Of a stretch of DNA of 64,000 nucleotides, positions 13,235-42,643 are shown piece after piece. Below the pieces are notes generated by a model. That model was given only the letters and a program-made list of their open reading frames with translations. It searched no databases and was not told the origin of the DNA. Position 1 is the first letter of the stretch. Every line of letters begins with the position of its first letter. The stretch is from Candidatus Latescibacterota bacterium (GTDB taxonomy: Bacteria > Latescibacterota > UBA2968 > UBA8231). Both the position numbers and the translations under genes were made by a program. The stretch covers positions 64,001 to 128,000 of the forward strand of contig CBDETY010000003.1 in assembly GCA_965243025.1 (NCBI GenBank). The letters run 5' to 3'.

Positions 13235-15268
13235 CTAGCCTCCGGCGGATCCCAAGGACAGCGCCACCACCGCCCAGAACACCTCCATGGCAAGGTGTCC
13301 GAGCGCCAGCCCCAGGAAGGCCGGCAGCGCCTTCTGATACAGCCGCACCCCGCCGTAGCGCAGCATCGTCGACTTGATCGCCCAGGCGATGAGCACCGAG
13401 GACCACAGTTTGTAGCCGAACCCGGTGCCGACCACGAAGCCGATCGGATGCAGCGGCCAGTGCGAGAACACCCGCCGCAGGACGGCGAGGGCGGCGGTTA
13501 CCGCGAAACCGATCCCCTCGAAGGCGTAGTTCAGCCAGGCCGCGGCCTGCGGTTTGTATGCCCAGTGGACGGTGTGATGCACCTCACGGCCGTGGTAAAA
13601 GGAGACTGCCGCGTACTGGTTGCCGCTCCCCATGTCCTGGAGCCCGTGGGTGTAGATCGCCGTCAACGAGGTCCAGAAGGCGATCGCCAGCCCCAGCGCG
13701 AAAGCCAGCACCAGCGCCAGGGTCATGCGGGGGGCCGGTACGGCGGCGGCCTGTCCCAACTTGTACGATTCGAAGAGGATCACCATCAACATGCCGAAAC
13801 CGCCGGCGCAGAGCATGTTGAGGTGAGAGAGGACCTGGTAGTCGGAGGCGGAGTAGATTGCCGGGCCGGTGCCGGTCGCCATGTAGATCAGGAACGGTAC
13901 CGGCAGCAGCTCGTAGGTGAACGGCACTCCAGCCTCGGCGCGCATGCGGGCGAAGGCCAGCGCCAGGAGCAGAAACAGCACGAAAAAGGCCAGTCCCCAG
14001 CCGATACCCAGGCCCGCCATGTGAGCCCAGATCACGCAGATGGCCAGGGCCCCGGCCAGCCCCCCGACCGTGAAACCCGCGGAGAATGGTTCCCCCTCTT
14101 CCCGTCCCGGGCGGGCTTGCCGGAATCTGAACGCTTTGCCGAGGAGTTCCCGCAGATGCGACCGGGCGCTCCAGACCATGAAGATGATCAGCACGTAGAT
14201 GCCGCCCTGGGCCTGGCTGCTGAAGAAGGGAAACTGCCTGGCGCCGGAAAAGAACATGAGCCGGTTCGCAGCGGTCATCTGGGACAGCCCGGTCAGCTCG
14301 GCACCGAGCAGTTGCAGACGGGTGAGCAGGAAAAAGAGCCAGACGCTCAACAGCGTATTCAGCGGGAACAGGTAGGCGATGCCGATCATGAGCGGGGAGA
14401 CCGAAAACAGGAAGGGATCGGAAGGCAGCATGGTTTCCAGGGTCATGGCGCTCCACGGTTTCTCCACCAGGAAGTTGGCGAAGTCCAGCTCCAGGCTCAC
14501 CGGGGTCAACGCCTGCACGTACCTGGTCAGCCCGTTGTAACCCAGAAGCAGCGCCGATACCGCAAAGCCGGTCCACGTCAACCGGTTGCGCAGCAGTCCG
14601 CCCGGGGCGGCCCCCGGGGCCTCGCCGCCGATGAGGGCCAGCGGCAGCTGCGCTATCGGGAAATTGAGGTTCTCTGTCTCCGTCCACTGCCGCCGCAGCA
14701 GGATCACCACGCACAGCATGGCGAAGAACAGACTGCAGATCAGCACCGACCAGGCGGCCAGCGGCAGCAGCCAGGCCCCCCAGGGCACGCCCCCCCCGGT
14801 GGGCGCGAAAAACTCGTCCACGGCCCCGGGGTCGGCGGCGGCGGGACCGAACCAGGCGGGGATGTATTTCAGGAAAGGGTAGTACCACGTCCCCGGTTCG
14901 GCGTACATGAAATGGTTGGTGACCATTCCGGGCAGCAGCCGGTGCACCAGACCGGTTCCCGACAGCAGGGAGCCCACGCAGGCCATGCAGTAGATGACGG
15001 CCAGTTCGCCGCGACTCAGCCGCAGCCACGGCAGCAGTCCCCGCAACCCGGACAGCAGCAGCACGAGCAGGCCCAGCAGGAAGACCGGGCCCGCCGGCGG
15101 GGCCCACTCGTTCAGGTCGGGACCGCCCAGGGCCAGCGTCACCCGCTGCAGGAGCAGGCTGATCAGCGCGATCGCCCCGGCCCCGAGCAGGAACGATTTC
15201 AGCGTCAGCCCGCGGTCGACTGCCCCGCTGCTACTGTCGCGCCGATCGGTGCCGTGCGTCCTGGCCAT
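13235..15268 (-). CDS. Polytopic membrane protein, DUF6785/DUF6784-like (distant OPT-like transporter)
   Basis: Many TM segments, with LSRGELAVIY, RRQWTETENLNFPIAQLP, FARMRAEAG and WPLHPIGF motifs. Confidence 0.75.
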   Translation of the reverse strand: MARTHGTDRRDSSSGAVDRGLTLKSFLLGAGAIALISLLLQRVTLALGGPDLNEWAPPAGPVFLLGLLVLLLSGLRGLLPWLRLSRGELAVIYCMACVGSLLSGTGLVHRLLPGMVTNHFMYAEPGTWYYPFLKYIPAWFGPAAADPGAVDEFFAPTGGGVPWGAWLLPLAAWSVLICSLFFAMLCVVILLRRQWTETENLNFPIAQLPLALIGGEAPGAAPGGLLRNRLTWTGFAVSALLLGYNGLTRYVQALTPVSLELDFANFLVEKPWSAMTLETMLPSDPFLFSVSPLMIGIAYLFPLNTLLSVWLFFLLTRLQLLGAELTGLSQMTAANRLMFFSGARQFPFFSSQAQGGIYVLIIFMVWSARSHLRELLGKAFRFRQARPGREEGEPFSAGFTVGGLAGALAICVIWAHMAGLGIGWGLAFFVLFLLLALAFARMRAEAGVPFTYELLPVPFLIYMATGTGPAIYSASDYQVLSHLNMLCAGGFGMLMVILFESYKLGQAAAVPAPRMTLALVLAFALGLAIAFWTSLTAIYTHGLQDMGSGNQYAAVSFYHGREVHHTVHWAYKPQAAAWLNYAFEGIGFAVTAALAVLRRVFSHWPLHPIGFVVGTGFGYKLWSSVLIAWAIKSTMLRYGGVRLYQKALPAFLGLALGHLAMEVFWAVVALSLGSAGG

Positions 15269-15274
15269 GGCCGC

Positions 15275-18200
15275 TCAGATTCCCAGTACCGCGCGGGGGT
15301 CCCTGCCTGCCAGTCCGGCGGCGCGGCCCTCGTAGCCCTGCCGGGCTTCGTCGCCGATGGCGCGCCAGATCAGGAACTGCTTTCGCAGGTCGTTGAAGAA
15401 GGCATAGTTCTTGCGCAGCCAGCTTTCGCGGTCGCCGGAAACCCGGCTCGCCTGCACCTCGACCTCGTAGACGTCCTCCTGGCCGGGGACGGCCTGCAGC
15501 TCGAGCCGCTGGCTCACATTCAGGTCGAAGGGAGCCAGCCAGACCTGCAGGCCGACCGCGTGCACCGCTCCGCCGGGTGTGTCGAGGCGCTCGTAGCGGG
15601 CATCCCGGGTGTAGAAGGCGGCCCCCACGGTCTGCTCTTCGTGCAGGGCGAAATACTCCGTGAGGTAGGCCATCAGGCCGGCGACGTCCGCCTGCCGCAC
15701 GGTGACCGGGATCGTCATCGACAGCTCGTCTCCCACCGCCGGGGGCAGGATCCACTTGCGCTGCACCGCCGAGGCCGCAACCCGGAAGGCCAGGCTCGCC
15801 GGATACAGGCTGGAGAGCAGCACCATGGCCATCACCAGGGCGATGCTGTAGACGACCGACAGCGAGGAGTAGTTGAGGGTCAGCCCGGAAACCAGGTCGA
15901 AGGAAGAGACCACGGTCGACACCAGCTGGCCCGCCAGGTATCCCAGCACCGCTCCGAAACTCGCATACACCGCGGCTTCGGCGACGAACAGACCGGCCAC
16001 GTGCAGCGGCGACAGCCCCACCGCGGTGTAGGTGTTGATCTCCTCCCGCCGCTCGTACACGGAGCCCAGCATCGTGTTCAGCACGATCAGGGCCCCGATG
16101 ACCAGCGGTACTATGATGTTGCTCAGACCGCCCACCGACTGCAGATCCACCGCGTTCAGCAGGTAGCGCCGGCCATCGATGCCCGCGGTCATGTTGACCG
16201 CCAGCCCCGCCATCCAGTCCTCGATCGCCCTGCCGACGGCTGCGGCGCTGGCAAAGCCGATGGCGACGGAGCGGATGCTTCCCCCCCAGCGGCGCGCCAC
16301 CGCGTAGGGCACGACGACCGCCTGCTCGGCGGCGAGGTGGACGAAGCTGACCTCTTCTCCCGACAGGGCGCGCTCGGCGGCCCCCCCGGTCTTCTCCGGC
16401 GGCTGCGTGGCATCGGGATCCAGCGGCGTCAACGGCGCGTTGCCGAGGTCCAGCAGATTGTCGAACAGCCCTTCGTCCAGCAGCCCGACGACGGTGAAGA
16501 CCTCCCCGGAGATCACCACCCGCGCGATACCCGCGTCGGCCGCCCCGATACGCAGCTGGCGCGCGAGGCGCAGCGGCAGGATGCAGACCTGCTCCTCGCC
16601 CGGCTCGAACCAGCGGCCGGCGTACAGGGCGCGCTGGGGGGCGGTCAGCGCCGCCTCCTGCGCCGTCAGTCCGAGGACCGCCATCGCCGTGCCGGCCCGG
16701 TCGCGCCGGTCCAGCCGTTCGACCCGGACCCTGCTCTGCGGCGCGACGCCCGCCACCCCCTTCGCCGTGCCGTCGAACCAGGCCCGCGGGCTCACGATCT
16801 GCTCCCGGAACTGGTTGGCGATGCCGGCATGGATCCCTTCGTTCACCGGTGCCCAGCCCACCTGCCGCACCAGCAGTCCGTCGTAGAGGGCAGGGCCCTG
16901 TGCCGGCACCTGGTTGAAGCCCAGGAAGGTCTTTACCGAGGTGAAACCCAGCACCGAGAACGTCACCAGGACGATCGTCGACATCGCCAGCAGGGTGCGC
17001 AGCGGCCGGCGCCGCATGTTGTTGATGCCCAGGTCGAAGGCGCTCCAGACGGCCCCCGAGCGGTCCATGTCCGCCCGGTGCACCCCGCCCACGCGGCTCA
17101 TCATCCTCCGGATCTGTCGCTGCATCCTGGTCAGACCGATGCGGATCACCAGTACGCTGAGGGCGAAGATGATGAAGCCGAGCAGGATGATGCCGGGGTT
17201 GAGCGCCAGGTCGAAGGCGGGGTGGACCCACCTCAGGATCCCGAAGGCCGCCAGGAAGAACGCGGCAAGTCCCAGCAGCTGCCGCCTGATGGTCGCCCCG
17301 GCCAGCAGCAGCCGTTCGCCGAACCAGGCGAAGGGGATCAGCAGCGCCATGTAGAAGAGCACTCCCTTGACCACGTCGCCGGTCGTGCCGTGCACGTCGA
17401 GGTAGGCTCGGCTGGCGTAGGTCCAGGAGCGGCGGGCCATCTCGCCGAAGCGGTCGTACTCCTTCTTCTCCAGCGCCTTCCCGGCTTCGTCCAGGTAGTC
17501 CAGCGCCCGGTCGTGCAGGTTCCGCAGGCGCTCGTTGCGCACCCCGTGCCGCCGCAGGTTGTCGATGCGGCTGTCGTTCAGCAGACTGATGTCCCTCGCC
17601 ACCCGGTAGGCGGTATGGGTCAGGCGCGTCTGCCGGGAGACCGGGAAGCCCTCCCCGATCGCCGTTTCAGGAGAGCTGTTGAGGAGCAGAAGGCGGTTGC
17701 CCAGGCCGTAGAATCCCCAGGTCATGGCGATCTTCATCCGCGTCCCGGGCGGGGCGAAGACTGTCACGCAGGGTTCGACCAGCGAATCCAGTTTCTTCTG
17801 CACCCATCTGGCATTGTAATCGAAACGAACCCCCGCCTCGCGGTCGTTATACGGATACAGCGGCAGGGTGTAGCCGAATTCGACCGGCTGCACCTCGCGC
17901 CCCTCCTCCAGCACCGACAGGCTGTTCAGCACATCCAGATAGCGGTGGTCGAGCGCTTCGAAGAGGGTCATCCCGTCGGCCTCGAAGAGCACGACGCTGA
18001 CTTCTTCGCGCTTGCGGTCCAGATCGAGCTCCAGCGGGTAGCGCTCGGCCCCGTTGACCCCCAGGTCCGCGACATGGTCGACCGAACCATCGACGGGATC
18101 GAGGTGATACGCTTCCAGCTTCACCGGCACCATTCCGGAAAAGGAGGCGGCGCGGATTACCCCGGGCATGAGGAAACGGCCGTGGCGGTCGGCCATGGCC

Positions 18201-20284
18201 AGGAACTCGGTGCGCACCCCGACGAGGGTCTTGGCGGGCAGGCGCAGGCGCACCAGGGAATGGGGTACCGGCGCGTCAGGGACGAAGCCGGTGTGCGGAT
18301 CGAAGTAGACGGTCCGGCCTTCGACGTAGCCGAAGAAGTCGGACTCGCCGCGGGCGATCATGGCGATCCGCGGATCGTCGGCGGCTTCGCGCAGGAACGG
18401 CAGGAGGAACTCCGCCTGGCGGCCCAGGCGCGAAAGGTCGAGCCCGGCGGCGCGGTCCAGGGGCGTGTCGAAGGCGGAACGGGTGTCCGCCAGGGTGGCC
18501 AGGGTCGCGGTGAGGAACCCCCAGGCGTTCAGGGGGCCGCCGTTGAACGGGAGGGGCTCGTGGTGGCCCCCCAGGACCAGCCGCCCGCGCTCGAACTGGA
18601 TGCCGTCGAAGAACAGCGGCGGTTGGCCGAAGCCGGCGGCCGCCAGTGTTTCCTCGACCCGTTTGCCGGCCGCCATGACCCGTTCGTAGAACGGGGAATC
18701 GCCATGGGTATTGCGGTTGTGGGCCCAGCCCGGCCCGAAATCATAGAAGCCGCCGCCCCCGAAGATGCCGACCCGGTCTCCCCCCGCCGACAGATCCAGC
18801 CCCAGGCAGGCGTCGAGGCGGTAGCGGTCGAGCACCGCCAGAAACCGGCCCTGCCCATCGACGACACGCAGCTTCTGCCGGAGATCCCTCATCTCCTCCG
18901 CCAGGCGCCGGCGCAGCACTTCCACCAGGGCGGGTGAGCGAAACAGGGACTCCATCTCCGCGGCGGTTTCGATCCAGCGCAGGGGGCGCGCCACCTCGAG
19001 CATGGCTTCCAGGCGAACGCGTTCGGCTTCCTCCAGCTCCCCTTCGAGCCTGTTTTCCTGCCCGGCAACAACGCGGGCGGCGTTGTCGGCGAGCTCTTCG
19101 ACGAGGCGGGGGAGGCTCTCCGTCCCCGGCGGCAGGGAACCGCCATCCTCCAGATAAGCGGTGAACTGCTCCAGCAGGCGCAGCCGCCCGGTGAGGCGGC
19201 TACGGCGCTGCGCCAGCCCTCGCTGCCCTCCGTCCATCAGGGCAACCAGCTGGCGCATGCCGATCAGCGCCTGGAAGTGGCCGCCGCTGGCGACGAAAAC
19301 CACGGTGCGCGCCGGCGGCCGGGCGGCAAACTCCCGGGCGGCCTCCAGCAGCACCGCCACACCCGACGCCGCCCCGGCCCCGGGAGCACGGGCCGGCACC
19401 ACCGAGGCGGCGTCGTAGTAGGCCTCCAGCACGAGGGCGTGGTCCCTGAGCTCGGGGTCGCTCCCCTCCACGACGCCGAGGATGTGGCGGCCAAGGGCGT
19501 TCGCCCAGTCCATGCGGGCGGTGAGATGGACCGGCTGGCCGAGGTGGTTTTTCAGGGTTTCCCCGGCCCGGCGCGGCACCCAGAACCGCGGCAGGTCGGC
19601 CGGCACCGAGAGGAATTTCTGTTCGGCCTCGGTGCGGTTCGGCTTTTCGGGCTCCAGAAACAGGACCGCCGAGGCCCCCAGGTCGAAGGCGTTTATCCAG
19701 TTCATCCCGGAATCGAACTCCATCAGCACCAGCTGCCCGGCGACGTCGAGTCCGTTGAAAGCCGACAGCTCGCCATGGCCGCCGTAGACCAGCCGGCCGC
19801 TGATGCCGCCCGGAGGCAAGGTGGGCGTGCGCACCAGGTTGGGCCACAGGCAGAACAGCTCGACCGCCGGACCGTCCGGCTGCACCACCAGGCGCGCGCC
19901 CCGGTCGAGCGGCACCGGCAGCTCGAACGGCATGGCGGTCACCGACTGCAGGCCGATCCGGCGGAACCGGTCTTCGATCCAGGCGGCGGCGCTGTCAGCG
20001 CCGGGATAGCCGGTTACGCGGGAAGGGTAGCCGGAAAGGGTCGCGATCGCGCGCCGCAGGCGCTCCAGGTCGACGCCGCTCCTGGCGGCGGAGCCGGCGT
20101 CGGCGGAAATGCGCGGCGCAGCGGTATCCGGGAAGGACCGGAAGGAAAACGGGAAATCGGCGAAGTAGAAGTGGAGAAGCGATGCGAGGGCGGCTGCGGA
20201 CGCCAGCGCCGCGGGCCAGGCCCATGGGAAACCCGCCGGCGGGCGCTGCGGATCGTCCCCTTCCCGGGATCCGGAGTTGTGCAC
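15275..20284 (-). CDS. 1669-aa fusion: PA/M28 peptidase-like ectodomain + FtsX/MacB-like permease
   Basis: SRVTGYPG and EAYYD..APGA..ASGVAVLLE (M28-like). NNMRRRPLRTLL and NTMLGSVYERREEI..AVG are FtsX/MacB signatures. Confidence 0.8.
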   Translation of the reverse strand: MHNSGSREGDDPQRPPAGFPWAWPAALASAAALASLLHFYFADFPFSFRSFPDTAAPRISADAGSAARSGVDLERLRRAIATLSGYPSRVTGYPGADSAAAWIEDRFRRIGLQSVTAMPFELPVPLDRGARLVVQPDGPAVELFCLWPNLVRTPTLPPGGISGRLVYGGHGELSAFNGLDVAGQLVLMEFDSGMNWINAFDLGASAVLFLEPEKPNRTEAEQKFLSVPADLPRFWVPRRAGETLKNHLGQPVHLTARMDWANALGRHILGVVEGSDPELRDHALVLEAYYDAASVVPARAPGAGAASGVAVLLEAAREFAARPPARTVVFVASGGHFQALIGMRQLVALMDGGQRGLAQRRSRLTGRLRLLEQFTAYLEDGGSLPPGTESLPRLVEELADNAARVVAGQENRLEGELEEAERVRLEAMLEVARPLRWIETAAEMESLFRSPALVEVLRRRLAEEMRDLRQKLRVVDGQGRFLAVLDRYRLDACLGLDLSAGGDRVGIFGGGGFYDFGPGWAHNRNTHGDSPFYERVMAAGKRVEETLAAAGFGQPPLFFDGIQFERGRLVLGGHHEPLPFNGGPLNAWGFLTATLATLADTRSAFDTPLDRAAGLDLSRLGRQAEFLLPFLREAADDPRIAMIARGESDFFGYVEGRTVYFDPHTGFVPDAPVPHSLVRLRLPAKTLVGVRTEFLAMADRHGRFLMPGVIRAASFSGMVPVKLEAYHLDPVDGSVDHVADLGVNGAERYPLELDLDRKREEVSVVLFEADGMTLFEALDHRYLDVLNSLSVLEEGREVQPVEFGYTLPLYPYNDREAGVRFDYNARWVQKKLDSLVEPCVTVFAPPGTRMKIAMTWGFYGLGNRLLLLNSSPETAIGEGFPVSRQTRLTHTAYRVARDISLLNDSRIDNLRRHGVRNERLRNLHDRALDYLDEAGKALEKKEYDRFGEMARRSWTYASRAYLDVHGTTGDVVKGVLFYMALLIPFAWFGERLLLAGATIRRQLLGLAAFFLAAFGILRWVHPAFDLALNPGIILLGFIIFALSVLVIRIGLTRMQRQIRRMMSRVGGVHRADMDRSGAVWSAFDLGINNMRRRPLRTLLAMSTIVLVTFSVLGFTSVKTFLGFNQVPAQGPALYDGLLVRQVGWAPVNEGIHAGIANQFREQIVSPRAWFDGTAKGVAGVAPQSRVRVERLDRRDRAGTAMAVLGLTAQEAALTAPQRALYAGRWFEPGEEQVCILPLRLARQLRIGAADAGIARVVISGEVFTVVGLLDEGLFDNLLDLGNAPLTPLDPDATQPPEKTGGAAERALSGEEVSFVHLAAEQAVVVPYAVARRWGGSIRSVAIGFASAAAVGRAIEDWMAGLAVNMTAGIDGRRYLLNAVDLQSVGGLSNIIVPLVIGALIVLNTMLGSVYERREEINTYTAVGLSPLHVAGLFVAEAAVYASFGAVLGYLAGQLVSTVVSSFDLVSGLTLNYSSLSVVYSIALVMAMVLLSSLYPASLAFRVAASAVQRKWILPPAVGDELSMTIPVTVRQADVAGLMAYLTEYFALHEEQTVGAAFYTRDARYERLDTPGGAVHAVGLQVWLAPFDLNVSQRLELQAVPGQEDVYEVEVQASRVSGDRESWLRKNYAFFNDLRKQFLIWRAIGDEARQGYEGRAAGLAGRDPRAVLGI

Positions 20285-20296
20285 CTCGACAAAGGC

Positions 20297-20737
20297 TCAG
20301 GGTCCGACTTGCACCGAGTCCGGCTCGGACGGCGGCCCCTGGAAGAGGTTCCGGTCGTAGGCGCGGACGCGGGCCAGCAGCCAGGCGCCGGTCTCTCCCT
20401 CATCGGCGGCGATACCGTCCGTGTCGAGACCGCTCGACGTGAAGCTGCGCACGTCGGCTCCCTCGACGGCGCGCTCGTACACGGGGTTGCCGCGGTGGCT
20501 CAGGGTGACGAGGAACCCGTGCGCGTCGGAAACCGCTTCCATCTCCCACGTCACCCGCACCTCGCCCGTTTCCGTCCACGCCGCCTGCACCCGGACCGGG
20601 GGCTCGAGATTCTGGTGGAACGAGGTGACCGGCTCGTGGTCCTTGTCGCAGCCGGCGAGCAGCGCGATAGCGGCCAGCGCCGCCGGAACGGCTCGCCGCA
20701 GCAGGGCGCCTGCGCGCGCAATTGCGCAACCAGCCAC
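20297..20737 (-). CDS. Small lipoprotein with a fibronectin-III-like domain
   Basis: Lipobox LLAG-C. PPVRVQA..VRVTW ... RVRAYD..GPPSE follows the FN3 pattern. Confidence 0.65.
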   Translation of the reverse strand: MAGCAIARAGALLRRAVPAALAAIALLAGCDKDHEPVTSFHQNLEPPVRVQAAWTETGEVRVTWEMEAVSDAHGFLVTLSHRGNPVYERAVEGADVRSFTSSGLDTDGIAADEGETGAWLLARVRAYDRNLFQGPPSEPDSVQVGP

Positions 20738-25392: not shown

Positions 25393-25459
25393 GGTACTCT
25401 CCTTTGTCGAAAGGAAGTGGGAGAAACACTCGATAAATGCCGAATGCTCGATGGAGCCC

Positions 25460-36065: not shown

Positions 36066-39000
36066 GTGAGCGTGGGCTGGGGTATTCTCGTCGGCCTGTC
36101 CCTGTTGATCGCCGCGGCGCGCAACGTCCCCACCGCCAGCGACCTCCAGTGGTGGTTCGAGGAGGGGCAGAAGTTCTACGCCTCGGGGGCGTACGACCAG
36201 GCGGTGGAGAAGTACGGCCTGATCACCGCGGTCGAAAGCCGTTTCCTCGAGACCGACTCGCTCTCCTACGCGGTGGGAGAAATCTCCGCGCCGGTCCGGG
36301 ACGTGGCGCTCTACCAGACCGGGAACTCCTACTTCAAGATGGCCGGGGAGGAGCTGGAGCTCGCCCGCCGGGCGGCCAGCGAACAGCGGCGGGACCGCCA
36401 TCGCGAGAGCGCGCGGGAGCACCGGACGCTGGCCATCCGGTTCTTCGAGAAGACGGAGGGGCAGACGAGGAACGCCGATCTGCAGGAGCTCGCCCGCAAC
36501 CGCATCGTCAAGGTGCTGTACGAAAGCGGCGACTACGAGCGCACGATACGGGAGGCGCGCCGCCTCATCGAGAGGTACCCGGAGAGCCGCTACACGAGGA
36601 GCGCCCTTTACGACATCGGCTGGTCCTACTACGAGTTGGAGGAGTACGGACTGAGCGTGGAGGCATTCGAGGAGCTGGTGGCGCGTTTTCCGTCGGGGTA
36701 CCAGCACGACCGGGCCCTGTTCCAGATCGGCGAGAGCCACTACAGCAAGGGGCAGTACCGGCAGGCCCTGCCCTACTACCAGCGCCTGGTGGAGCTGGCC
36801 CGGATCGACCAACTGACCGACGAGGAGCTGGCGCGAATGCGCCGGGAGAAGATCGCCGGCCTGGTCGACGAGACGGTGCTGGAACTGGCCATGAAATCCC
36901 AGATCAGAGCCGGTTCCTGCTACGCCAGCCTCGGGGAGTACGAGAACGCGGCCGAGGTCTACCGCAGCGCCATCGGGCTGTTCACCAGGGAGCGCTCCCT
37001 GGCCGAAGAGGCCTACCGGCGCCTGGCCGACATGTACCAGCAGGCAGGTCAGTTCGAGCGGGCGGTGGCCATCTACCGCGAGGCGATAGACTCGGTCTCC
37101 GATCCCGCCTTCCGGGCGCGCATGCAGTCGCTCCTGGCCGAGCGCTACTACCAGAGCGGACGCTTCGAAGAGGCCATAGAGGAGTACAGACTCTACATGG
37201 GAGCCTACGCCGACGCGGCCAGGGCGGCCGGGTTCGGTGTCGACGAGGCGCGTTACAAGGTCGGACGGTCCTATTACGAGCTGGCCCGCGGGCAGCGGGA
37301 AAGCCGCGGTTCCCAACAGGCAGTACCGCACCTGCTGAGTGCCGTCGATGAATACCAAGCGGTGCTGGAGGAATTCCCGGACAGCTGGCTGGGACTGGCC
37401 TGCCACTTCAACATCGGGCTCTCCTACCAGACGATGGACACCGCCGAGGGCCGTGCCCGGGCCATGGAGAAGTTCGACTTCATAGCACGGGAGCATCCCC
37501 GGGACGAGTACGCTCCCGGCGCCCTCTTCCAGATCGCCCGCATCCACTTCAACCAGGGTTCGTACGCAAGCGCTGTCGAGACCTACGAACGCATCGTGGC
37601 CGACTACGGCGATTCGCCGCGGCTGGACACCGCCTTTTTCGAGCTGGGAATCGCCCGGAAGAAAGCCGGCCTCGACGAGCCGGCTGTCGCCGACTTCCTC
37701 GGAATCGGAACCGAATCCGCCCTCTACGTGAAGGCGCGCCACGAGGCGGCCCAGCTCCTGATGGACATGGGGAAGTTCGATCGCGCGCTGGAAGAGCTCG
37801 CCGGGGCCCTGGCGCTCGCCGAAGGCCCCGAGCGCGGGCTCAACCACTACCTGCAGGGCAAGGCCCAGGTCGGCAACGAGGCCTACGCGGAGGCCGCCCT
37901 CCAGTTCGGCGAAGCCCTCGAGCTGCTCGAAGATCCCAAACTGGCGGAGAGCGTCCGCTACAGCCGCGGAGTCTGCCTGATGCAACTCGAGCGCTACGCG
38001 GAGGCCGAGGCCCTCCTGGTGGTCCTGACCGACGCCGAAGACCTGAAAGTGCGCCGGGCTGCACAGCGGATGCTGGGCAAGGCGCGCATCGAGCTGCACC
38101 GGGAGGAACAGGCCCTCGAAAACTATCGCATCCTGGCCGCGGAAGCCGCCGACCCGGCTGAGAAGGCGGAGTACCTGCTCCTGCTGGCCGAACTCTACCA
38201 CGGGTTGGAGCGGAACGAAGATGCCGCCCGGCTCGCCCGCCAGGTCATCGGGTTGCCCTTCGAGGACACGCGCGCCGAGCAGGGAGACTATTTCATCAAG
38301 GAGCGCGCCTTCTACCTGCTCGGGGATACGTTCGTGCGGCGCGGCATGCACGAAGCGGCGATTGAAACCTATGCCGAGGCCCTGGGTTCCTATCCGTCGG
38401 GCTTCTACGCCTCGGACATGCGCTTCGCCGTGGCCAGTTCCCGCATGCAGCTGGACGACCTGGACAGGGCCGCCGATTCCTTCGAGGCCTTCATACGGGA
38501 GTTCGGGGAAGATCCGAATCTCCCCTATGCCTATTACTACGCGGCCTACTCCCATTTCAATCTCACCCGCTTCGAACGGGCCGCCTCTCTGTTCGCCGAA
38601 ATGGCGAGCCGTTTCCCCGGGCTGGACGTGACCCCCGATGCCCTGTACCGGGCCGGCGAGAGCTGTTTCAATCTCGGCCGCTTCGAGGAGTCCCTCTCCT
38701 ACTACCAGCGAATCCTCGACGAGCACCCGCAGTCGGACCAGGTGGACGGCGCCCTCTACAACAAGGCGTGGGCGCTGCTTGAAAGGGACCGCGGCGCCGA
38801 AGCTGCCGCCGTCTTTCGGCAACTGGTCGAGCGTTTTCCCGACAGCGAGTTCGGGCCGAGCGCCCAGTTTTCCATAGGCGACTATCACTACAACCAGGAG
38901 AACTACCGGGATGCCCTCGATGCCTACCGGAAGGTCGCCGAGCTCTACCCGCGGAATCCACTGGCCGGGAAGGTCCCGGACCTGATCGCGGGGCTCCGGG

Positions 39001-39311
39001 AGAGCCTGGCGTTTCTCGATTACCAGAAAGCGGTCGAACCGTACAGGGAGGCGATGGCCGACAAGGATCCGGAGAAATTCCGACGGGCCATCGCGCTGTT
39101 TCAGCGGGTGGTCGAACAGTATCCCGGCACGGAGAGCCACACAGGCGCCCTGGTCAACATGGGCATCTGCTACGAGAGCCTGAACCGCTGGAAAGAGGCA
39201 GTCGCCGCCTATGACATGGTCTACCAGGCCTACGAGGACGGGAAGGCGACGGCCGAAGCCTATCAGTTCGCCAGGGCCCACAGGGAATGGATCACCGCCA
39301 ACCGCCTCTGA
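36066..39311 (+). CDS. Large exported tetratricopeptide-repeat protein (BamD/CpoB-like TPRs)
   Basis: N-terminal hydrophobic signal and many ALY/FxIG..Y...A...F..L..R(F/Y)P.S repeats. Confidence 0.88.
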   Translation: MSVGWGILVGLSLLIAAARNVPTASDLQWWFEEGQKFYASGAYDQAVEKYGLITAVESRFLETDSLSYAVGEISAPVRDVALYQTGNSYFKMAGEELELARRAASEQRRDRHRESAREHRTLAIRFFEKTEGQTRNADLQELARNRIVKVLYESGDYERTIREARRLIERYPESRYTRSALYDIGWSYYELEEYGLSVEAFEELVARFPSGYQHDRALFQIGESHYSKGQYRQALPYYQRLVELARIDQLTDEELARMRREKIAGLVDETVLELAMKSQIRAGSCYASLGEYENAAEVYRSAIGLFTRERSLAEEAYRRLADMYQQAGQFERAVAIYREAIDSVSDPAFRARMQSLLAERYYQSGRFEEAIEEYRLYMGAYADAARAAGFGVDEARYKVGRSYYELARGQRESRGSQQAVPHLLSAVDEYQAVLEEFPDSWLGLACHFNIGLSYQTMDTAEGRARAMEKFDFIAREHPRDEYAPGALFQIARIHFNQGSYASAVETYERIVADYGDSPRLDTAFFELGIARKKAGLDEPAVADFLGIGTESALYVKARHEAAQLLMDMGKFDRALEELAGALALAEGPERGLNHYLQGKAQVGNEAYAEAALQFGEALELLEDPKLAESVRYSRGVCLMQLERYAEAEALLVVLTDAEDLKVRRAAQRMLGKARIELHREEQALENYRILAAEAADPAEKAEYLLLLAELYHGLERNEDAARLARQVIGLPFEDTRAEQGDYFIKERAFYLLGDTFVRRGMHEAAIETYAEALGSYPSGFYASDMRFAVASSRMQLDDLDRAADSFEAFIREFGEDPNLPYAYYYAAYSHFNLTRFERAASLFAEMASRFPGLDVTPDALYRAGESCFNLGRFEESLSYYQRILDEHPQSDQVDGALYNKAWALLERDRGAEAAAVFRQLVERFPDSEFGPSAQFSIGDYHYNQENYRDALDAYRKVAELYPRNPLAGKVPDLIAGLRESLAFLDYQKAVEPYREAMADKDPEKFRRAIALFQRVVEQYPGTESHTGALVNMGICYESLNRWKEAVAAYDMVYQAYEDGKATAEAYQFARAHREWITANRL

Positions 39312-39324: not shown

Positions 39325-39903
39325 ATGCAGGTGCACCGACTTCTGATCTGCCCCCTGGCCCTCTTCCTCGCAGCCGCCGTTTCACTCGATCCGGCCGGCG
39401 CCCAGGTGTTTCCCGAGGAGACTTTCACCCAGCGGCAGCGCGCCGGGAAAAAGCGGGCCATTGCCATATCCGCGGTCCTTCCCGGTCTCGGACAGGTAGC
39501 CCTGGGCTCTCGCTTCAAGGGCCTCGGCATCTTCCTCGGGGAGCTGACCACGCTCGTCGTGGCGGTCAACGCCAACGAGAACTACAAGACGCTCAAGGGG
39601 CGGCACGAGCAGGAAACGGAGCGCTACCTGGCCCTGCGCAACGGGGGACGGTTCGAACAGGCGGAGGAGCGCTGGCAGACGCTCAAGGGTATGGAAGAGG
39701 ACCTGGACAGCTACCACAGCTGGCGCCAGCTCGCCTATCTGTCGGCAGGCATCTACGTGTACAACATGGTCGACATACTGTTCTTCGCGGCACCCGGAAG
39801 CGGCGCCCGGGAGGCGCGCCGGGAAGCGCCGGAGCGGTTGCGGTTGAGCGCGAGGATGATCGACCGGTCGCCGGGAGTGGGCATCACCTGGCACGGCCTC
39901 TGA
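39325..39903 (+). CDS. DUF5683-like exported/membrane protein
   Basis: Signal peptide, KKRAIAISAVLPGLGQ motif and IYVYNMVD. Start re-called at MQVHRLL. Confidence 0.65.
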   Translation: MQVHRLLICPLALFLAAAVSLDPAGAQVFPEETFTQRQRAGKKRAIAISAVLPGLGQVALGSRFKGLGIFLGELTTLVVAVNANENYKTLKGRHEQETERYLALRNGGRFEQAEERWQTLKGMEEDLDSYHSWRQLAYLSAGIYVYNMVDILFFAAPGSGAREARREAPERLRLSARMIDRSPGVGITWHGL

Positions 39904-40616
39904 TGAGCCGGCGCGGACCGGTTCATCCCCCGCTGCTCGCCGCGCTCGCGTTCGCTCTCCTCACTGCTTCCGGTTGTCTGCATGTCCGTCTCAACACGGC
40001 CATCGCCGCCGACGGCGGGACGCTGCGCAGTCTCGACCTTTCCGTGGACGAGGAGTTCCGGCCGCTCCTGATGCAAGCGCACGAGACCGGGGGGCAGCTG
40101 GTTCCCGCCCGGGACCGGTGGAGGGAGAGGAGCCATGTCGAGGAGGGGCGCTTCCACCGGGTCCTCACGAGGGAATCCCACGATGCCGACGGCATTTCGG
40201 ACCGCGAGCTGCGGAGCCTCTTCGGCCAGTGGATCGAGCTGGGCCCCTACGAGGAAGGGGACGCGGTGGAGTTCGACGTCTACCGCACTCTCCCGGCGAC
40301 CACCTACGCCTTTCGGGAGACGTTCAACATACGTCCCGGCGCCGCCGCCCTCGCCAGGGCGCGCGAACAGCCGCTGCCTCCGGTGGAGATCGAGATTGCG
40401 GTCGAGATGCCCGGTGAGTTGCTGGAATCCCCTTCAGCGACGCGGACAAAGGGGGGCACCGCCGCCTGGAACTACACCATGGCCATCGAGGACACGGCCT
40501 CATTTGCCGGGCAGGTGACGGTCAAGTCGGGACGCACGCATTTCTGGCACTTCCTGCTTGCGGGGATTCTCGTCATCCTGTTCCTCGTCTCCCTGCCCGG
40601 TCAGTTCCGCCGTTGA
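39903..40616 (+). CDS. Lipoprotein with C-terminal TM anchor (LppM/DUF3153-like)
   Basis: Lipobox ASG-C, then I..DG, VEMPG and a C-terminal hydrophobic helix. Confidence 0.55.
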   Translation: MSRRGPVHPPLLAALAFALLTASGCLHVRLNTAIAADGGTLRSLDLSVDEEFRPLLMQAHETGGQLVPARDRWRERSHVEEGRFHRVLTRESHDADGISDRELRSLFGQWIELGPYEEGDAVEFDVYRTLPATTYAFRETFNIRPGAAALARAREQPLPPVEIEIAVEMPGELLESPSATRTKGGTAAWNYTMAIEDTASFAGQVTVKSGRTHFWHFLLAGILVILFLVSLPGQFRR

Positions 40617-40645
40617 GAAACGGTCTCCCGCCCTGAGAGAGGAAT

Positions 40646-42643
40646 GTGCTGAAAGAGAGGGATCGCTCCACCCGGGATCTGGAAGAATACCGCGGCCTGA
40701 TGGAGGTGCCGTCCGAGTTCGAGGATGGCTTCAACATGCGCTCGGTCCTCGGCGCCTTCTTCATCGGTTTCGTCATGCTTCCCGGGTCGATCTATCTCGG
40801 TCTCATTGCCGGGCGCGGCATGGGACCGGCGGCGGAGTGGGTCACCATCATCCTGTTCGCCGAGATCGCCCGGCGGTCGTTCACCGTCCTGCGCAAGCAG
40901 GAAGTTTTCATCCTCTTCTACATCGCCGGCGGCCTGACGGAGGTGGTGCTCGGCGGCGGCCTGATGCTGGCCGGCGGTCCCTTCGCCGAGGCGATGTGGC
41001 ATCAGTACCTGGTCCAGTCCACCGCCGCCGAGGGGTTCGGCATCTCCGGGCAGATTCCCGAATGGGTATCCCCGCCGGCCGATTCGCCGGCCATGGTGCA
41101 CCGCACCCTGTTCCACAAGGCGTGGATCCCCGCCGTCGCCCTCATCGCCTTCAAGTACATCGCCACCAGGGTGGCCTGGTTCGGCGCCGGTTACACGCTC
41201 TTCCGCATCACCTCCGACAGGGAGAATCTGCCGTTTCCGATGGCGCCGGTCGGCGCCCAGGGAGCGCTGGCGCTGGCCGAATCGACCGGCGAGAAGGAGA
41301 CGTGGCGCTGGAACGTCTTCATCGTCGGGATGACGACCGGGGTCCTCTTCGGCACCGTCTACGTCGGCGTGCCCGCCCTCACCGGGCTGATCATGAAGGA
41401 GCCGCTCAACCTCATCCCCATTCCCTGGATCGACACGACCTTCCTCACCGAATCCTTCCTCCCGGCCAGCCCCACCGGGTTGATGACCGATCTCGGCGTG
41501 GTGATCACCGGCTTCGTGCTGCCGTTCTGGGTGGTCGTCGGCGGCTTCCTCATGGCCATGGTTTACGTGCTGGTCAATCCCCTGCTCTACAACGCCGGGC
41601 TGCTGACGATCTGGCGCCCGGGCATGGACACGGTGACCACGGAGTTCGCCAACTCCGTGGATCTGTGGATGAGCGTGGCCATTGGAATGGGCTTCGCCGT
41701 CGCCGCGATCGGCCTGGTCACCGTCTTCCTTTCCGCGAGGCGGACGGCGCGCGCGCGGACCGGGAAGCCCGCCTCCTCGGCGCCGCCCCCGGGGCGCGGC
41801 GACATCCCGTTCTGGGTCGGGATCGGGCTGTACGTGCTGGCCACCAGCGGCTACATAGCGGTCTGCATGCTGATTCTCGAAGACGACGAATTCCCCCTCG
41901 GCTTCCTGCTCCTCTTCGGCTTCCTGCTCACGCCCGTGCTCTCCTACATCAATGCGCGCATGGTCGGCATGACGGGACAGACCGTGGGTTTTCCCATGGT
42001 TCGCGAAGGCTCCTTCATCCTCTCGGGCTACAGGGGTGTCGACATCTGGTTCGCGCCGGTCCCCTATGACAACTACGGCGCCAGCGTGCAGCTGTTCAGG
42101 CAGTTCGAGCTGACCGGGACGCGCTTCACCAGCATCATCAAGGCCGAGCTCCTGCTGATTCCGGTGGCCCTCGGCTGCAGCCTGCTCTTCTGGACCCTGA
42201 TCTGGAACAGCACTTCCATCCCTTCGCCGATCTTCCAGTACGCGCAGAAGTTCTGGCACCTCACCGCGCTCCGGCAGTCGATCTGGATCTCGGCGACGAC
42301 CGAGGGCAACCACCTGTTCATGGAGGCGATCAAGTTCGACTGGATCGGGGCGGGCTTTCTGTTCGGAGTATGTTCGTACGTCCTGCTGACCGTGCTGGGA
42401 CTGCCGGTCCTGCTCATCTACGGATTCATCAGGGGGGTGGGGCAGTTGTCCCATCTGCTGATCCCGGAAATGATCGGCGCCATGCTGGGGCGCTACTATT
42501 TCGAGAGGCGGTTCGGCAAACGGAAGTGGCGCCAGTACGCGCCGGTGCTGCTGGCGGGTTACGCGGCGGGAATGGGACTGATCGGCATGAGCACCGTAGC
42601 CATCGCCCTGGTTTCGAAGTCGGTGTCCCAGCTGCCTTATTGA
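40646..42643 (+). CDS. OPT-superfamily (oligopeptide transporter-like) membrane protein
   Basis: FEDGFNMRSVLGAFF, AAEWVTIILF, DRENLPFPMAPVGAQGA and LLAGYAAGMGL. Many TM segments. Confidence 0.78.
   Translation: MLKERDRSTRDLEEYRGLMEVPSEFEDGFNMRSVLGAFFIGFVMLPGSIYLGLIAGRGMGPAAEWVTIILFAEIARRSFTVLRKQEVFILFYIAGGLTEVVLGGGLMLAGGPFAEAMWHQYLVQSTAAEGFGISGQIPEWVSPPADSPAMVHRTLFHKAWIPAVALIAFKYIATRVAWFGAGYTLFRITSDRENLPFPMAPVGAQGALALAESTGEKETWRWNVFIVGMTTGVLFGTVYVGVPALTGLIMKEPLNLIPIPWIDTTFLTESFLPASPTGLMTDLGVVITGFVLPFWVVVGGFLMAMVYVLVNPLLYNAGLLTIWRPGMDTVTTEFANSVDLWMSVAIGMGFAVAAIGLVTVFLSARRTARARTGKPASSAPPPGRGDIPFWVGIGLYVLATSGYIAVCMLILEDDEFPLGFLLLFGFLLTPVLSYINARMVGMTGQTVGFPMVREGSFILSGYRGVDIWFAPVPYDNYGASVQLFRQFELTGTRFTSIIKAELLLIPVALGCSLLFWTLIWNSTSIPSPIFQYAQKFWHLTALRQSIWISATTEGNHLFMEAIKFDWIGAGFLFGVCSYVLLTVLGLPVLLIYGFIRGVGQLSHLLIPEMIGAMLGRYYFERRFGKRKWRQYAPVLLAGYAAGMGLIGMSTVAIALVSKSVSQLPY

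Follow-up and report, generated by a model that had tools for sequence, protein, structure and literature searches.

In Bacteroidota, cargo is paired with PorP/SprF-like proteins; the T9SS motor is GldL/GldM, and examples of synthase-dependent exopolysaccharide secretion include AlgK/AlgE, BcsC, PgaA and PelB. For the Agl-Glt machine, an excerpt of one study describes GltABH as a "porin trio" with the TPR protein GltC beneath and an adhesin on top, and the TonB-CTD-like domains of GltG and GltJ as binding the TPR protein GltD (PMC11761067). An excerpt of a second source describes a core gene set with TolQR-like, TPR and TonB-like members that is widespread and has no known function (PMC3169522). 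Here we examined a window of 64,000 nucleotides (the whole stretch of Candidatus Latescibacterota DNA analysed, to which all positions refer) and found that a single conserved envelope system, characteristic of Latescibacterota and of lineages neighbouring them, is encoded by two divergent operons. No description of the gene set was found in the literature searched, in agreement with its original prediction as undescribed.

Frames were chosen for both operons using GC3 and ORF lists, which support real gene calls in two divergent, tightly packed strings. As had been predicted, many genes overlap or abut, with within-operon gaps of -4 to 46 nt, save 162 nt from the T9SS-CTD gene to the DUF4159 gene and 230 nt from the oxidoreductase gene to the creatininase gene. 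The strings are separated by 257 bp of locally AT-rich sequence (25393-25649), presumed to hold the promoters of both operons; one sigma-70-like site lies at 25465-25493 (+), with a site count across the region not above chance, and no sigma-54-like site was found there. Nearly all of the domain labels first assigned hold at curated Pfam/NCBIfam cut-offs, and the range first proposed (13235-42643) contains the core genes but leaves the sulfatase, oxidoreductase and creatininase genes outside.

Using the family of ~900-aa proteins of the rightward operon as an anchor, we compared the window with 67 related loci from 41 MAGs, taken from the 80 best-scoring among at least 374 confirmed matches, in which MAG labels and ORF calls are imperfect and many loci stop at contig or flank limits. 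Searches with tblastn detected the TPR protein in 37 of the 67 loci (full-length, query residues about 3-1081), the discoidin protein in 36, the TonB-C-tailed lipoprotein in 32, the DUF4159 protein in 25 and the CTD protein in 21 (some matching the tail only); the sulfatase was found in eight, DUF5683 in seven, the second permease in five, DUF6785 in four and M28-FtsX in one. This gene-neighbourhood check shows a recurrent cassette. Its members are discoidin proteins bearing a CTD, between one and three outer-membrane-type proteins of ~900 aa, a TPR protein of ~1080 aa, a DUF4159 protein anchored in the membrane and a lipoprotein of ~250 aa; relatives often add ExbB/TolQ together with either one or two ExbD/TolR genes, and sometimes a PPIase, DUF5683 or DUF6785-type permeases. 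The TPR gene immediately follows 30 of the 73 non-edge outer-membrane blocks, DUF4159 mostly comes right after TPR or ExbD genes, and DUF5683 follows either the TPR gene or the outer-membrane genes. Furthermore, the lipoprotein or DUF4159 gene, both from the window's leftward operon, occurred in 35 loci and in 33 of these shared a strand with the TPR and outer-membrane genes, which supports the prediction that the two operons form one machine.

Likewise, L020 and L057 each carry a single string of TPR, DUF5683, small lipoprotein, DUF4159 and lipoprotein genes, and a protein of L058 combines the N-domain of the lipoprotein (E 3e-48) with a short terminal stretch of 53 aa that resembles DUF4159 (E 8e-7). 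The small lipoprotein between DUF5683 and DUF4159 in L020 and L057 is a homologue of the window's 146-aa lipoprotein (20297-20737, -; LLAGC), which is of no known family and whose "FN3" label gained no Pfam or NCBIfam match. DUF5683 itself is a small membrane protein (39325-39903, +; Pfam 40.8 bits, with a start codon), and a 237-aa lipoprotein with a C-terminal TM segment (39903-40616, +; translation and TM scan) had relatives in none of the loci by jackhmmer.

The three paralogues, OM1 (27802-30474, +), OM2 (30471-33128, +, its ATG overlapping the OM1 stop codon by 4 nt) and OM3 (33146-36037, +, with Phe as C-terminal residue), are ~890-960 aa in length, carry signal peptides and define an unnamed family of 1120 representative clusters with no sequence match in Pfam, NCBIfam or PDB. 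Signal peptides, an amphipathic-strand scan (with such a beta pattern in OM1) and weak SlpA_C matches (5 of 21 members, best E 0.01) point to putative outer-membrane β-barrels, and profile searches of the family returned no Plug domain or TonB-dependent-receptor signal. A tree split the paralogues into three position-specific lineages, with 22 rows in the OM1 clade (SH-like support 99), 21 in the OM2 clade (support 100) and 42-43 in the OM3 clade. Nineteen of the last are solitary copies with no TPR gene after them, and the extra OM3-type copies from catabolic loci also fall here; in the two best-sampled genomes the first, second and third clades were represented by 1/1/12 and 1/1/8 copies. 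The nearest named Atlas cluster to the family is DUF6029 (score 0.89, a lead only), and hhalign against a DUF6029 protein of L036 proved negative (probability 1%).

Directly after OM3 lies the gene for a 1081-aa TPR protein (36066-39311, +), which matches TPR families, has a signal peptide or anchor and is presumed to be a periplasmic scaffold. A giant TPR protein encoded beside barrels would also suit surface-polysaccharide export over such a scaffold, as in synthase-dependent exopolysaccharide secretion, as would the DUF6029 lead, since an excerpt of PMC9603273 suggests DUF6029 to be a polysaccharide-export barrel. Nevertheless, the negative hhalign result, the catabolic neighbours and the absence of glycosyltransferase, synthase, Wzx/Wzy and OPX genes from the window and scanned loci make export very improbable.

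The lipoprotein at 20737-22032 (-) joins a conserved N-domain of ~250 aa, of no known family, to an AgmX/PglI-type TonB-C-terminal-like tail (NF033768, 65.1 bits, cut-off 40), and its family profile matched nothing in PDB but TonB C-terminal domains (13 of 13, best E 6.2e-5). It is the N-domain that recurs in 32 of the 67 loci, the tail being present in 11 of 30 cluster members. The adjoining DUF4159 protein (22045-23310, -; Pfam 119.1 bits) has a single TM helix at its N-terminus, followed in the N-terminal alignment by a linker that is basic and contains proline, matches PDB 4I66 (E 2.3e-10) and is a candidate transducer or anchor. Neither ExbB nor ExbD is encoded in the window; ExbB/TolQ is found in 18 and ExbD/TolR in 15 of the 67 loci, with ExbB in 14 of 35 TPR-holding loci, and this recurrence places the system in the Ton/Tol/Agl-Glt motor-driven envelope class. 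Tests for membership of TonB-dependent receptors and of canonical TonB both failed, and no canonical TonB was present among 50 unassigned neighbour ORFs scanned.

The same components could form a complex for surface adhesion or gliding, driven by a Tol-type motor and comparable to the focal-adhesion machine Agl-Glt of Myxococcus or to the non-motile "core complex" of that machine. In such a complex the barrels would be the outer-membrane platform, the TPR protein and TonB-C-like lipoprotein would link to the stator, and the discoidin CTD proteins would serve as adhesins. The AgmX/PglI family of the lipoprotein tail and the motor genes within relatives' cassettes favour this, together with a weak match of DUF4159 to IFT52 (E 1.8), which carries a GldG-type (GIFT) domain. 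The porin trio/TPR architecture of Glt (PMC11761067, in excerpt) and the widespread TolQR-TPR-TonB-like core (PMC3169522, in excerpt) also accord with it. However, the GltG equivalog model scored 36.7 against a cut-off of 650, over the tail only, the Glt models miss the TPR protein, and the window's barrels are ~900 aa compared with 209 aa for GltH in a table of the latter source. Multiplication of OM3 in catabolic clusters and its pairing with permeases are likewise unexpected of a motility apparatus, and we consider this explanation unlikely, while granting it a real chance.

The secreted 639-aa T9SS-CTD protein (23473-25392, -) has a type A sorting domain above cut-off (TIGR04183, 29.9 bits, cut-off 23) and a FlgD-Ig-like tail (FlgD_ig, 59.6 bits), and its full-length cluster was found in 12 loci, where the gene precedes that of the discoidin protein in the same orientation. 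Across the intergenic region, a secreted protein with a CTD-like tail (25650-27755, +) had been labelled discoidin/T9SS-B; the discoidin part stood (F5_F8_type_C, 47.6 bits) but type B sorting scored 17.2 against a cut-off of 35, and the two secreted proteins have only the FlgD-Ig-like tail motif in common. The discoidin protein is a candidate surface glycan binder, and the discoidin domain and the CBM9-type proteins encoded in relatives' cassettes support carbohydrate binding. The discoidin gene is the immediate upstream neighbour of 29 of the 69 non-edge outer-membrane blocks, and it precedes 10 more with a PorV-like gene between. This PorV/PorQ/PorP-like barrel gene sits between CTD and outer-membrane genes in 11 loci, with PorV/PorQ matches in 11/11 members of the intervening family and PorP/SprF matches in 4/11.

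Such an arrangement, like the sorting domain, could mark a T9SS-linked accessory for cargo attachment or secretion, the exported CTD protein being held on, or passed through, its ~900-aa outer-membrane neighbour, and a sub-threshold PorW/SprE match of the TPR protein (73.9 against a cut-off of 250, so that PorW membership was rejected) leans the same way. Against this, the listed PorV, PorQ and PorP scores all fall short of their cut-offs, the window itself has none of these genes, satellite copies mostly have no upstream CTD gene, the cassette motor genes are of ExbB/ExbD type, unlike the T9SS motor, and the permease and catabolic linkage would be left unexplained; we judge it distinctly improbable.

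Two polytopic permeases are encoded. The first, of DUF6785 plus DUF6784 (13235-15268, -; Pfam 351 and 92 bits), is an inner-membrane protein with at least 10 hydrophobic segments in the TM scan. The second, of 665 aa (40646-42643, +), had been called OPT-like, a label that fell because 0 of 18 family members match Pfam OPT; hhalign instead identified it as a distant homologue of DUF6785 proteins, with 505 columns aligned colinearly (probability 81%, E 1.2e-5). Only 8 of the 67 loci, many of which end at contig or flank limits, carry a permease of either type. In L023, L035, L037 (twice), L048 and L065 a DUF6785 gene is preceded by DUF4159, by the related permease or by a satellite outer-membrane gene; the second permease gene follows that of the PPIase in L018, L021, L023 and L026 and adjoins that of M28-FtsX in L065.

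The 1669-aa M28-FtsX protein (15275-20284, -; Pfam FtsX 54.6 and Peptidase_M28 27.4 bits) comprises an N-terminal M28/PA-like domain, a long periplasmic region, three TM segments, a MacB-type FtsX module and a C-terminal domain of ~170 aa, with PDB matches to MacB, LolC and the aminopeptidase 2EK8. Both domains of the predicted fusion are therefore present, but the M28 metal-ligand positions are replaced in alignment to 2EK8; no ABC ATPase gene is in the window. FtsX/MacB-type modules are exporters or mechanotransducers and are not known as importers, which counts against uptake. The 138 homologues of M28-FtsX carry phyla-level labels, Caldiserica, Omnitrophica, Armatimonadota and Poribacteria among them, that are absent from the OM-family loci, where the protein is confined to L065, in a row with DUF6785 and second-permease genes divergent from the outer-membrane gene. 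The predicted multi-subunit inner-membrane importer is consequently weakly supported.

This distribution could reflect two independent adjoining systems, an OM/TPR/DUF4159/lipoprotein module and a separate one of M28-FtsX and two DUF6785-type permeases, and the second permease also has more than 3757 homologues against 1120 OM representative clusters, from different databases and only roughly comparable. Permease genes nonetheless come after core genes in L018, L021, L023, L026, L035 and L048, and in L037 and L065 they adjoin satellite outer-membrane genes; in the window DUF4159 and the lipoprotein share a tight leftward operon with M28-FtsX and DUF6785 (gaps -1 to 12 nt from DUF4159 to DUF6785). 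We think separate systems unlikely, with a small chance of being correct.

The sulfatase closing the leftward operon (11752-13227, -; Pfam Sulfatase 142.1 bits, C-L-P-A-R motif) is a catabolic accessory gene and, as predicted, has no signal peptide from its ATG at 13227; cytoplasmic catabolic accessories on the other side are a GFO/IDH/MocA oxidoreductase (42688-43698, +; Pfam, start codon) and a creatininase-family amidohydrolase (43929-44651, +; Pfam 119.8 bits, start codon). The flanking GH28 gene was also confirmed, but a paralogous "lyase-like pair" (5031-8375 and 7790-11587) had no family or PDB match. As predicted, neither SusC nor SusD is in the window, nor is there a Plug-type receptor, and the PUL-like character extends to relatives. 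Scanning 13 satellite loci (140/144 ORFs of at least 160 aa) revealed sulfatases, UxuA-like and MR_MLE dehydratases, GFO and SDR oxidoreductases, many PhyH dioxygenases, DUF4838, GH113, BNR, DUF2961 and GDSL esterases, and L037 holds two pairs of an outer-membrane gene adjoining a DUF6785 gene. Core cassettes lie near sulfatases in L005, L006, L010, L019 and the window, and near GH130, sugar kinase and rhamnosidase-like genes in L064.

Because the extra OM3-type copies have genes for sulfatases, sugar-acid dehydratases and DUF6785 permeases around them, we favour a reading as uptake, and the system most likely imports sugars, although catabolic neighbours indicate association rather than transport direction. 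A motor-coupled nutrient, probably glycan, uptake system is accordingly a tentative proposal, to which we give slightly less than even credence. T9SS-exported lectin-like proteins would capture substrate at the cell surface. OM1-OM3, possibly assembled into a hetero-oligomer, would provide the passage through the outer membrane, and additional OM3-type copies would act as substrate-specific ports. The TPR protein would scaffold these to the DUF4159 protein and the lipoprotein (with its TonB-C-like tail in this lineage), both of which may relay energy from a Tol/Exb-type stator, necessarily encoded outside the window. DUF6785 and its distant homologue would then take the product over the inner membrane and into the cytoplasm, to the sulfatase, oxidoreductase and amidohydrolase there, and M28-FtsX may be a lineage accessory with a dead peptidase-like binding domain.

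Compared with known systems, two features fit surface-display or gliding machines just as well (PMC11761067, in excerpt) and speak against the uptake reading: the combination of three barrels, giant TPR protein and TonB-C-like domain, and the PorV/PorP-like gene that comes after CTD cargo in 11 loci. The motor genes, the TonB-C-like tail and that intervening gene together indicate a known motor-coupled class with T9SS-linked surface proteins, which tells in part against the original prediction of a machine that would not map onto a known T9SS/gliding or TonB-dependent system. While a member of none of the Tol, Ton or Agl-Glt systems, the system belongs to their motor-coupled class.

The G+C content of the window is 62–73%, and reading frames were therefore chosen by third-position G+C. 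This gave two divergent gene strings that meet in the region 25393–25649, with gaps between genes of –4 to 46 nt after start-codon checks, apart from 162 nt from the gene for the secreted 639-aa CTD protein to that for DUF4159, and 230 nt from the oxidoreductase to the creatininase-like gene. Simple promoter and terminator scans of the window returned counts not above chance, a scan for sigma-54 –24/–12 sites counted 14 where 21 were expected, with none in the divergent intergenic region, and neither Rfam models nor a tRNA search had a match in the window.

Gene labels were judged using the curated cut-offs of Pfam and NCBIfam. Matches to DUF6785 with DUF6784, DUF4159, DUF5683, sulfatase, GFO/IDH/MocA and creatininase were all above these, in line with the original prediction, as were the 639-aa protein's match to the type A T9SS sorting domain, an F5/8 type C domain on the discoidin protein (Pfam) and an AgmX/PglI C-terminal domain on the lipoprotein described as AgmX/TonB-C. 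FtsX and Peptidase_M28 were both located on a single 1669-aa protein (Pfam), as predicted, and TPR repeats span the 1081-aa protein that had been named a giant TPR. On the left flank a family match was found for the expected GH28 gene, with a second GFO gene there too, while the FN3 label of the small lipoprotein had no family match behind it. Between the GH28/GFO genes and the sulfatase lie two large genes, 5031–8375 (+, 1114 aa) and 7790–11587 (+, ~1265 aa), which overlap, leaving the start of the second uncertain. These had been called a lyase-like pair, and they are paralogues of each other, but “lyase” is backed by no Pfam, NCBIfam or PDB sequence match.

Directly past the creatininase-like gene is an IS3-family element (45448–46643, –) with rve integrase core and HTH_Tnp_1 ORFs, which may have cut off the original end of the right operon. 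Further downstream, 56591–59851 (+) encodes a 1086-aa sigma-54 activator with Reg_prop beta-propeller sensor repeats, a domain that occurs in hybrid PUL regulators, and a homologue adjoins the core cassette in one related locus (L015). The only near-consensus –24/–12 site in the window (56319–56334, –; one mismatch, in a scan whose total site count was not above chance) is directly upstream of a divergent small ORF (56035–56304), with uncharacterised ORFs behind it.

The three paralogous outer-membrane genes of the right string, OM1 (27802–30474), OM2 (30471–33128) and OM3 (33146–36037), all on the (+) strand, encode proteins of 890, 885 and 963 aa that have signal peptides, no hydrophobic helices beyond these and, in a crude scan, the period-2 amphipathic pattern typical of membrane β-strands. 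None of the three matched a Pfam or NCBIfam model, and Plug (PF07715) and TonB_dep_Rec (PF00593) matched neither these proteins at E up to 10 nor any of 21 family members at E up to 1. The ~900-aa family also matched no T9SS model in NCBIfam, its profile matched no PDB sequence, and SlpA_C gave weak matches to five of the 21 members (best E 0.01). All 30 nearest Atlas neighbours of OM1 were unnamed clusters, with Latescibacterota the commonest taxon, and the nearest named cluster was DUF6029 (0.89), taken as a lead only. As candidate relatives, a DUF6029 protein and the PorV-like family were both negative by hhalign, and a Plug-type receptor from L062 reached a probability of 0.2%. A word-indexed search recovered 43 homologues, and a profile (A1) built from the three window paralogues and 18 of these detected 1120 representative clusters with an E limit of 1e-3 and 374 with a limit of 1e-30. 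Conservation over 120 members was highest in an Asp/Asn-rich block (OM1 residues 481–500 and 541–600), which had no match in the PDB; a calcium-binding reading of this block, made by eye only, was dropped.

Scanning species-representative genomes with A1 matched at least 387 stretches, of which at least 374 could be confirmed, and the 80 best of these gave 67 related loci (L-numbers), taken with 10 kb on either side, in 41 assemblies. By label, 18 of the assemblies belong to Latescibacterota and 12 to Gemmatimonadota, and the other 11 have another label or none; one locus, L050, is labelled Gemmatimonas phototrophica, and the genomes with L007 and L008 are near-complete. We treat the labels with caution because PMC10581226 reports that many genomes labelled Gemmatimonadota are reassigned to Latescibacterota and neighbouring phyla. 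Using tblastn with 21 window proteins against these 67 loci, components of both operons were found to recur together, in agreement with the proposed co-occurrence. The TPR protein was present in 37 loci (full-length matches), discoidin in 36, the lipoprotein that in the window has the TonB-C-like tail in 32, DUF4159 in 25 and the CTD protein in 21, followed by the sulfatase (8), DUF5683 (7), the 665-aa “second permease” (5), DUF6785 (4), the small lipoprotein (2) and M28-FtsX (1). ORF calling and clustering (729 ORFs, window included) gave slightly lower numbers, with TPR at 35, discoidin at 36, the lipoprotein at 29 and DUF4159 at 21.

Gene order was also conserved. Among 81 tandem outer-membrane blocks, 69 had a non-edge upstream side, where the direct neighbour was the discoidin gene 29 times and a gene of the PorV/PorQ/PorP-like cluster c8 another 10 times; on the downstream side, the TPR gene was the neighbour in 30 of 73 non-edge cases. 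A common order, as in L021, L023, L026 and L039, is discoidin, PorV-like, outer-membrane gene, TPR, ExbB, ExbD, ExbD, lipoprotein, PPIase and second permease. In 33 of the 35 loci holding a lipoprotein or DUF4159 gene, this shares its strand with the TPR and outer-membrane genes, and L020 and L057 carry TPR, DUF5683, small lipoprotein, DUF4159 and lipoprotein as a single string, which indicates, as judged from gene order, that both operons of the window are parts of a single conserved unit whose arrangement has changed in the window.

We built a FastTree phylogeny from 120 of the 129 outer-membrane ORFs (nine under 750 aa were left out), in which support values are SH-like only and several branches are long. 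Window-type genes fell into position-specific clades of 22 rows for position 1 (support 99), 21 for position 2 (support 100) and 43 for position 3 (support 100), the last including 19 solitary copies without a TPR gene after them. A second lineage of 32 rows contains single genes preceding TPR together with its own triplication, again with position-specific subclades, and this suggests selection for three distinct subunits. The second triplication was seen in L035, L044, L048, L050 and L063. In the two best-sampled genomes, first, second and third copies numbered at least 1, 1 and 12 (one copy probably being counted twice in overlapping loci) and at least 1, 1 and 8; per-assembly counts are lower bounds because only the best 80 of at least 374 matches were kept.

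For the extra third-type copies, which we term satellites, 140 of the 144 ORFs of ≥160 aa in 13 loci were scanned. Their neighbours comprised five sulfatases, UxuA-like and MR_MLE dehydratases, GFO, SDR and zinc dehydrogenases, many PhyH dioxygenases, DUF4838, GH113, BNR, DUF2961 and GDSL esterases and one MFS transporter, with two DUF6785 genes adjoining two outer-membrane genes in L037 and one canonical Plug-type receptor in L062. Genes of the PhyH family were strikingly frequent beside third-type outer-membrane genes and sulfatases (L024, L029, L036, L037, L052, L060, L061 and L062), with up to five in the 22-kb L036. A ~510-aa family with no Pfam match also lies beside third-type genes (14 ORFs in eight loci, for example L052:19193–20725), of which one member gave an 18-bit match to a beta-1,2-mannobiose phosphorylase model, and an adjoining ~500-aa family gave a 13.6-bit match to a GH32 N-terminal domain.

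When one representative of each recurrent neighbour cluster was scanned for domains, a MotA/ExbB cluster (103 bits; 18 of 67 loci) and an ExbD cluster (103 bits; 15 of 67 loci, often doubled) were detected, for which the best NCBIfam models were TolQ (130 bits) and TolR (60 bits), short of their cut-offs of 221 and 127. In the 64-kb window itself ExbB and ExbD were absent, both by tblastn with the proteins of related loci and by Pfam. The original prediction of a system lacking SusC/SusD holds in that no Plug, TonB_dep_Rec or SusD was found in the window, but is qualified by the ExbB/ExbD-type genes in relatives' cassettes. A parvulin-type PPIase cluster (~555 aa, seven loci) and a weakly CBM9-like gene also recur among relatives. 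No TonB_C domain was present in the 50 unassigned neighbour ORFs scanned out of 59, nine short opposite-strand ORFs having been excluded as probable artefacts.

Other genes were seen occasionally. FGE-sulfatase domain genes lie inside or beside core cassettes at L012:19732–21078 (between two ExbD genes), L021:14559–15113 and L049:1–1131, and these could serve in maturation of Cys-type sulfatases or, alternatively, be parts resembling GldK/PorK, a family that we take to be related to FGE. Near core cassettes there are also a DUF4340 gene, DUF4340 being a companion of GldG-type ABC auxiliary proteins, and, together with a TolC-like gene, a fusion of ABC-2 and ABC_tran (L045:8748–10082, L014:2361–3905).

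The core of the lipoprotein family is a ~250-aa N-domain that matches no named family, and the TonB-C-like tail is carried by 11 of 30 members, all of the window's own lineage. In the window's lipoprotein, NF033768 (AgmX/PglI C-terminal domain) matched residues 295–373 with 65.1 bits (cut-off 40), and a profile from 10 of those 11 members had 13 matches in the PDB, every one a TonB C-terminal domain (best E 6.2e-5), which supports the tail as TonB-like at the predicted fold level. Identity with canonical TonB was rejected, the protein being lipid-anchored and scoring below the TonB_C cut-offs (TIGR01352, 20.9 vs 27.1; PF03544, 14.8 vs 24.6).

DUF4159 proteins have in common a single TM helix at the N terminus and a linker that is basic and contains proline, and resemble the unannotated structure 4I66; a histidine in the TM anchor was discarded as a TonB-like feature, being present in only nine of 18 sequences. 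In L058, a 500-aa protein (19566–21068) combines the N-domain of the lipoprotein (E 3e-48) with a short C-terminal part that is DUF4159-like (53 aa, E 8e-7), and the locus has a separate DUF4159 gene besides. The TPR protein scored 234.6 against CpoB/YbgF, a score that stems from six repeat stretches in 1081 aa, and was rejected as PorW/SprE (73.9 vs 250).

The permease of the left string (13235–15268, –) scored 351 bits for DUF6785 and 92 bits for DUF6784, both above cut-off, and the 665-aa permease (40646–42643, +) is its distant homologue (hhalign probability 81%, E 1.2e-5, 505 colinear columns; pairwise BLAST E 0.02). The OPT-like label given to the latter was not upheld, as OPT (PF03169, Pfam cut-off 25.8) matched none of 18 full-length family members at E up to 1, and a C-terminal fragment from L065 reached 21.7 bits (E 9e-5), below the cut-off. 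Of 8000 candidates, at least 3757 proteins fell in the 665-aa family at E up to 1e-3, and among the homologues listed identity was 56–74%, with four named “peptide transporter” at source. Neither permease matched a PDB sequence. Permeases of either type occur in eight of the 67 loci (L018, L021, L023, L026, L035, L037, L048 and L065), and in L023 a DUF6785 gene is next after the second permease.

The M28-like domain of the 1669-aa protein (Peptidase_M28, 27.4 vs cut-off 21.3) aligns to aminopeptidase 2EK8, PA insert included, with HHD replaced by YYD, NDD by G-gap-A and EE by GH. We take these 2EK8 residues to be metal ligands and catalytic residues, and on the alignment the domain is predicted to be dead as a peptidase and probably has a binding role. 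The FtsX domain (54.6 bits) has MacB-like topology, TM1 and TM2 being separated by a large periplasmic domain, and in this respect resembles MacB/LolCE/FtsX permeases; it differs from them in its fusion to an inactive M28/PA domain and ~600 further periplasmic residues, and in that no ABC_tran or other ATPase domain was found in the window genes scanned. There are 138 homologues, some with MacB_PCD, and the few that are named are labelled, for example, Caldiserica, Omnitrophica, Armatimonadota, Poribacteria or Gemmatimonadetes. Among the 67 loci the gene is seen in L065 only, where it adjoins both permease types and is divergent from an outer-membrane gene.

The 639-aa protein carries a T9SS sorting domain (TIGR04183, 29.9; cut-off 23), whereas the type B domain proposed for the discoidin protein was below threshold (17.2 vs 35), as was FlgD_ig (16.7 vs 27), and a tail motif is the sole part that the two share. 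All 11 c8 members matched PorV_fam (best E 1.4e-18), nine PorVQ2 and four PorP/SprF, with bit scores for two members of 26.8 and 46.3 against a cut-off of 90. The CTD and PorV-like genes point to a T9SS connection, in keeping with CTD-type tails on both secreted proteins (above cut-off in the 639-aa protein only) and with a PorV/PorQ/PorP-like gene between cargo and outer-membrane genes in 11 loci; however, the window has no T9SS core genes, and the two PorV/PorQ/PorP-type bit scores given are sub-threshold.

A conserved multi-gene envelope set thus surrounds a new outer-membrane protein family and is linked in relatives to a Tol/Exb-type stator. As to function, we infer that uptake fits better than the rival readings, and import is preferred because one subunit type is multiplied in catabolic loci and paired with permeases, and because lectin-type surface proteins and cytoplasmic enzymes are encoded alongside. 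We tentatively propose, as a reading less likely than not, that Latescibacterota and relatives use an energised outer-membrane importer of a class not recognised before. Three ~900-aa barrels from the new family would assemble into a hetero-oligomer, in which third-type subunits would be interchangeable and come from catabolic loci specific to a substrate. The importer would be driven, without TonB, by the Tol/Exb-type stator via the giant TPR scaffold, membrane-anchored DUF4159 and the lipoprotein, and T9SS-displayed lectins would deliver substrate to it. The SusC/SusD principle would then in effect have been invented a second time, independently.

Latescibacterota and related uncultured lineages have repeatedly been described as degraders of algal and sulfated polysaccharides. 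Outer-membrane passage in Latescibacteria is assigned to non-specific porins in PMC4454575; a dedicated, conserved machine with a multiplied outer-membrane subunit would, if true, be the counterpart of the Bacteroidota PUL for these phyla, and its genes would serve as markers when glycan use is predicted from metagenomes. The new outer-membrane family and its adaptors (DUF4159 and the lipoprotein N-domain) would likewise join the few systems driven by Tol/Exb-type motors, and DUF4159, DUF5683, DUF6785 and DUF6784 would gain their first functional settings. In the openly searchable literature, DUF4159 appears in the Pfam database paper only, DUF6785 and DUF6784 have no occurrence, and the gene set is undescribed in work on Latescibacterota (TonB, SusC/PUL, sulfatase, type IX secretion); PMC12993501 contains no occurrence of TonB, outer membrane, sulfatase or secretion system.

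Of known systems, Tol-Pal is similar in that TolQ and TolR are the top models for the motor genes and the TPR protein has CpoB/YbgF-type repeats, but the motor scores are below cut-offs, the cassette has no TolB or Pal gene, and the TPR protein is ~4 times the length of the CpoB models (119–263 positions). The architecture of Agl-Glt, a less likely alternative, likewise combines three barrels with a giant TPR protein, a TonB-C-like domain and a Tol-like motor; as described in PMC3169522 and PMC11761067, the Myxococcus machine and a widespread “core complex” share with the cassette a Tol-like stator, TonB-CTD-like domain proteins of AgmX/PglI type, very large TPR proteins with signal peptides, three outer-membrane barrels and an adhesin or lectin at the surface. 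Against this, the GltG equivalog model scored 36.7 vs 650, on the tail only, no Glt model was among the matches of the TPR or other window proteins, the barrels here are ~4 times larger than Glt barrels, and the cassette is set in catabolic surroundings. To our knowledge, nothing in Glt corresponds to DUF4159, DUF5683, the lipoprotein N-domain or the permeases.

The proposed importer is finally comparable with TonB-ExbB-ExbD and SusC/SusD loci. It differs in that the cassette lacks a Plug or TonB_dep_Rec signal and SusD, that TonB is TM-anchored and proline-rich while the TonB-like domain here is on a lipoprotein and missing in 19 of 30 members, that the surface binders are T9SS-type CTD proteins rather than lipoproteins, and that cassette-bearing genomes hold canonical Plug-type receptors as well (L062). 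It resembles them in the ExbB-type and ExbD-type genes of relatives' cassettes, the TonB-C-terminal-like domain, the carbohydrate-binding surface protein gene directly upstream of the outer-membrane gene, and one common core for many extra outer-membrane genes in catabolic clusters.
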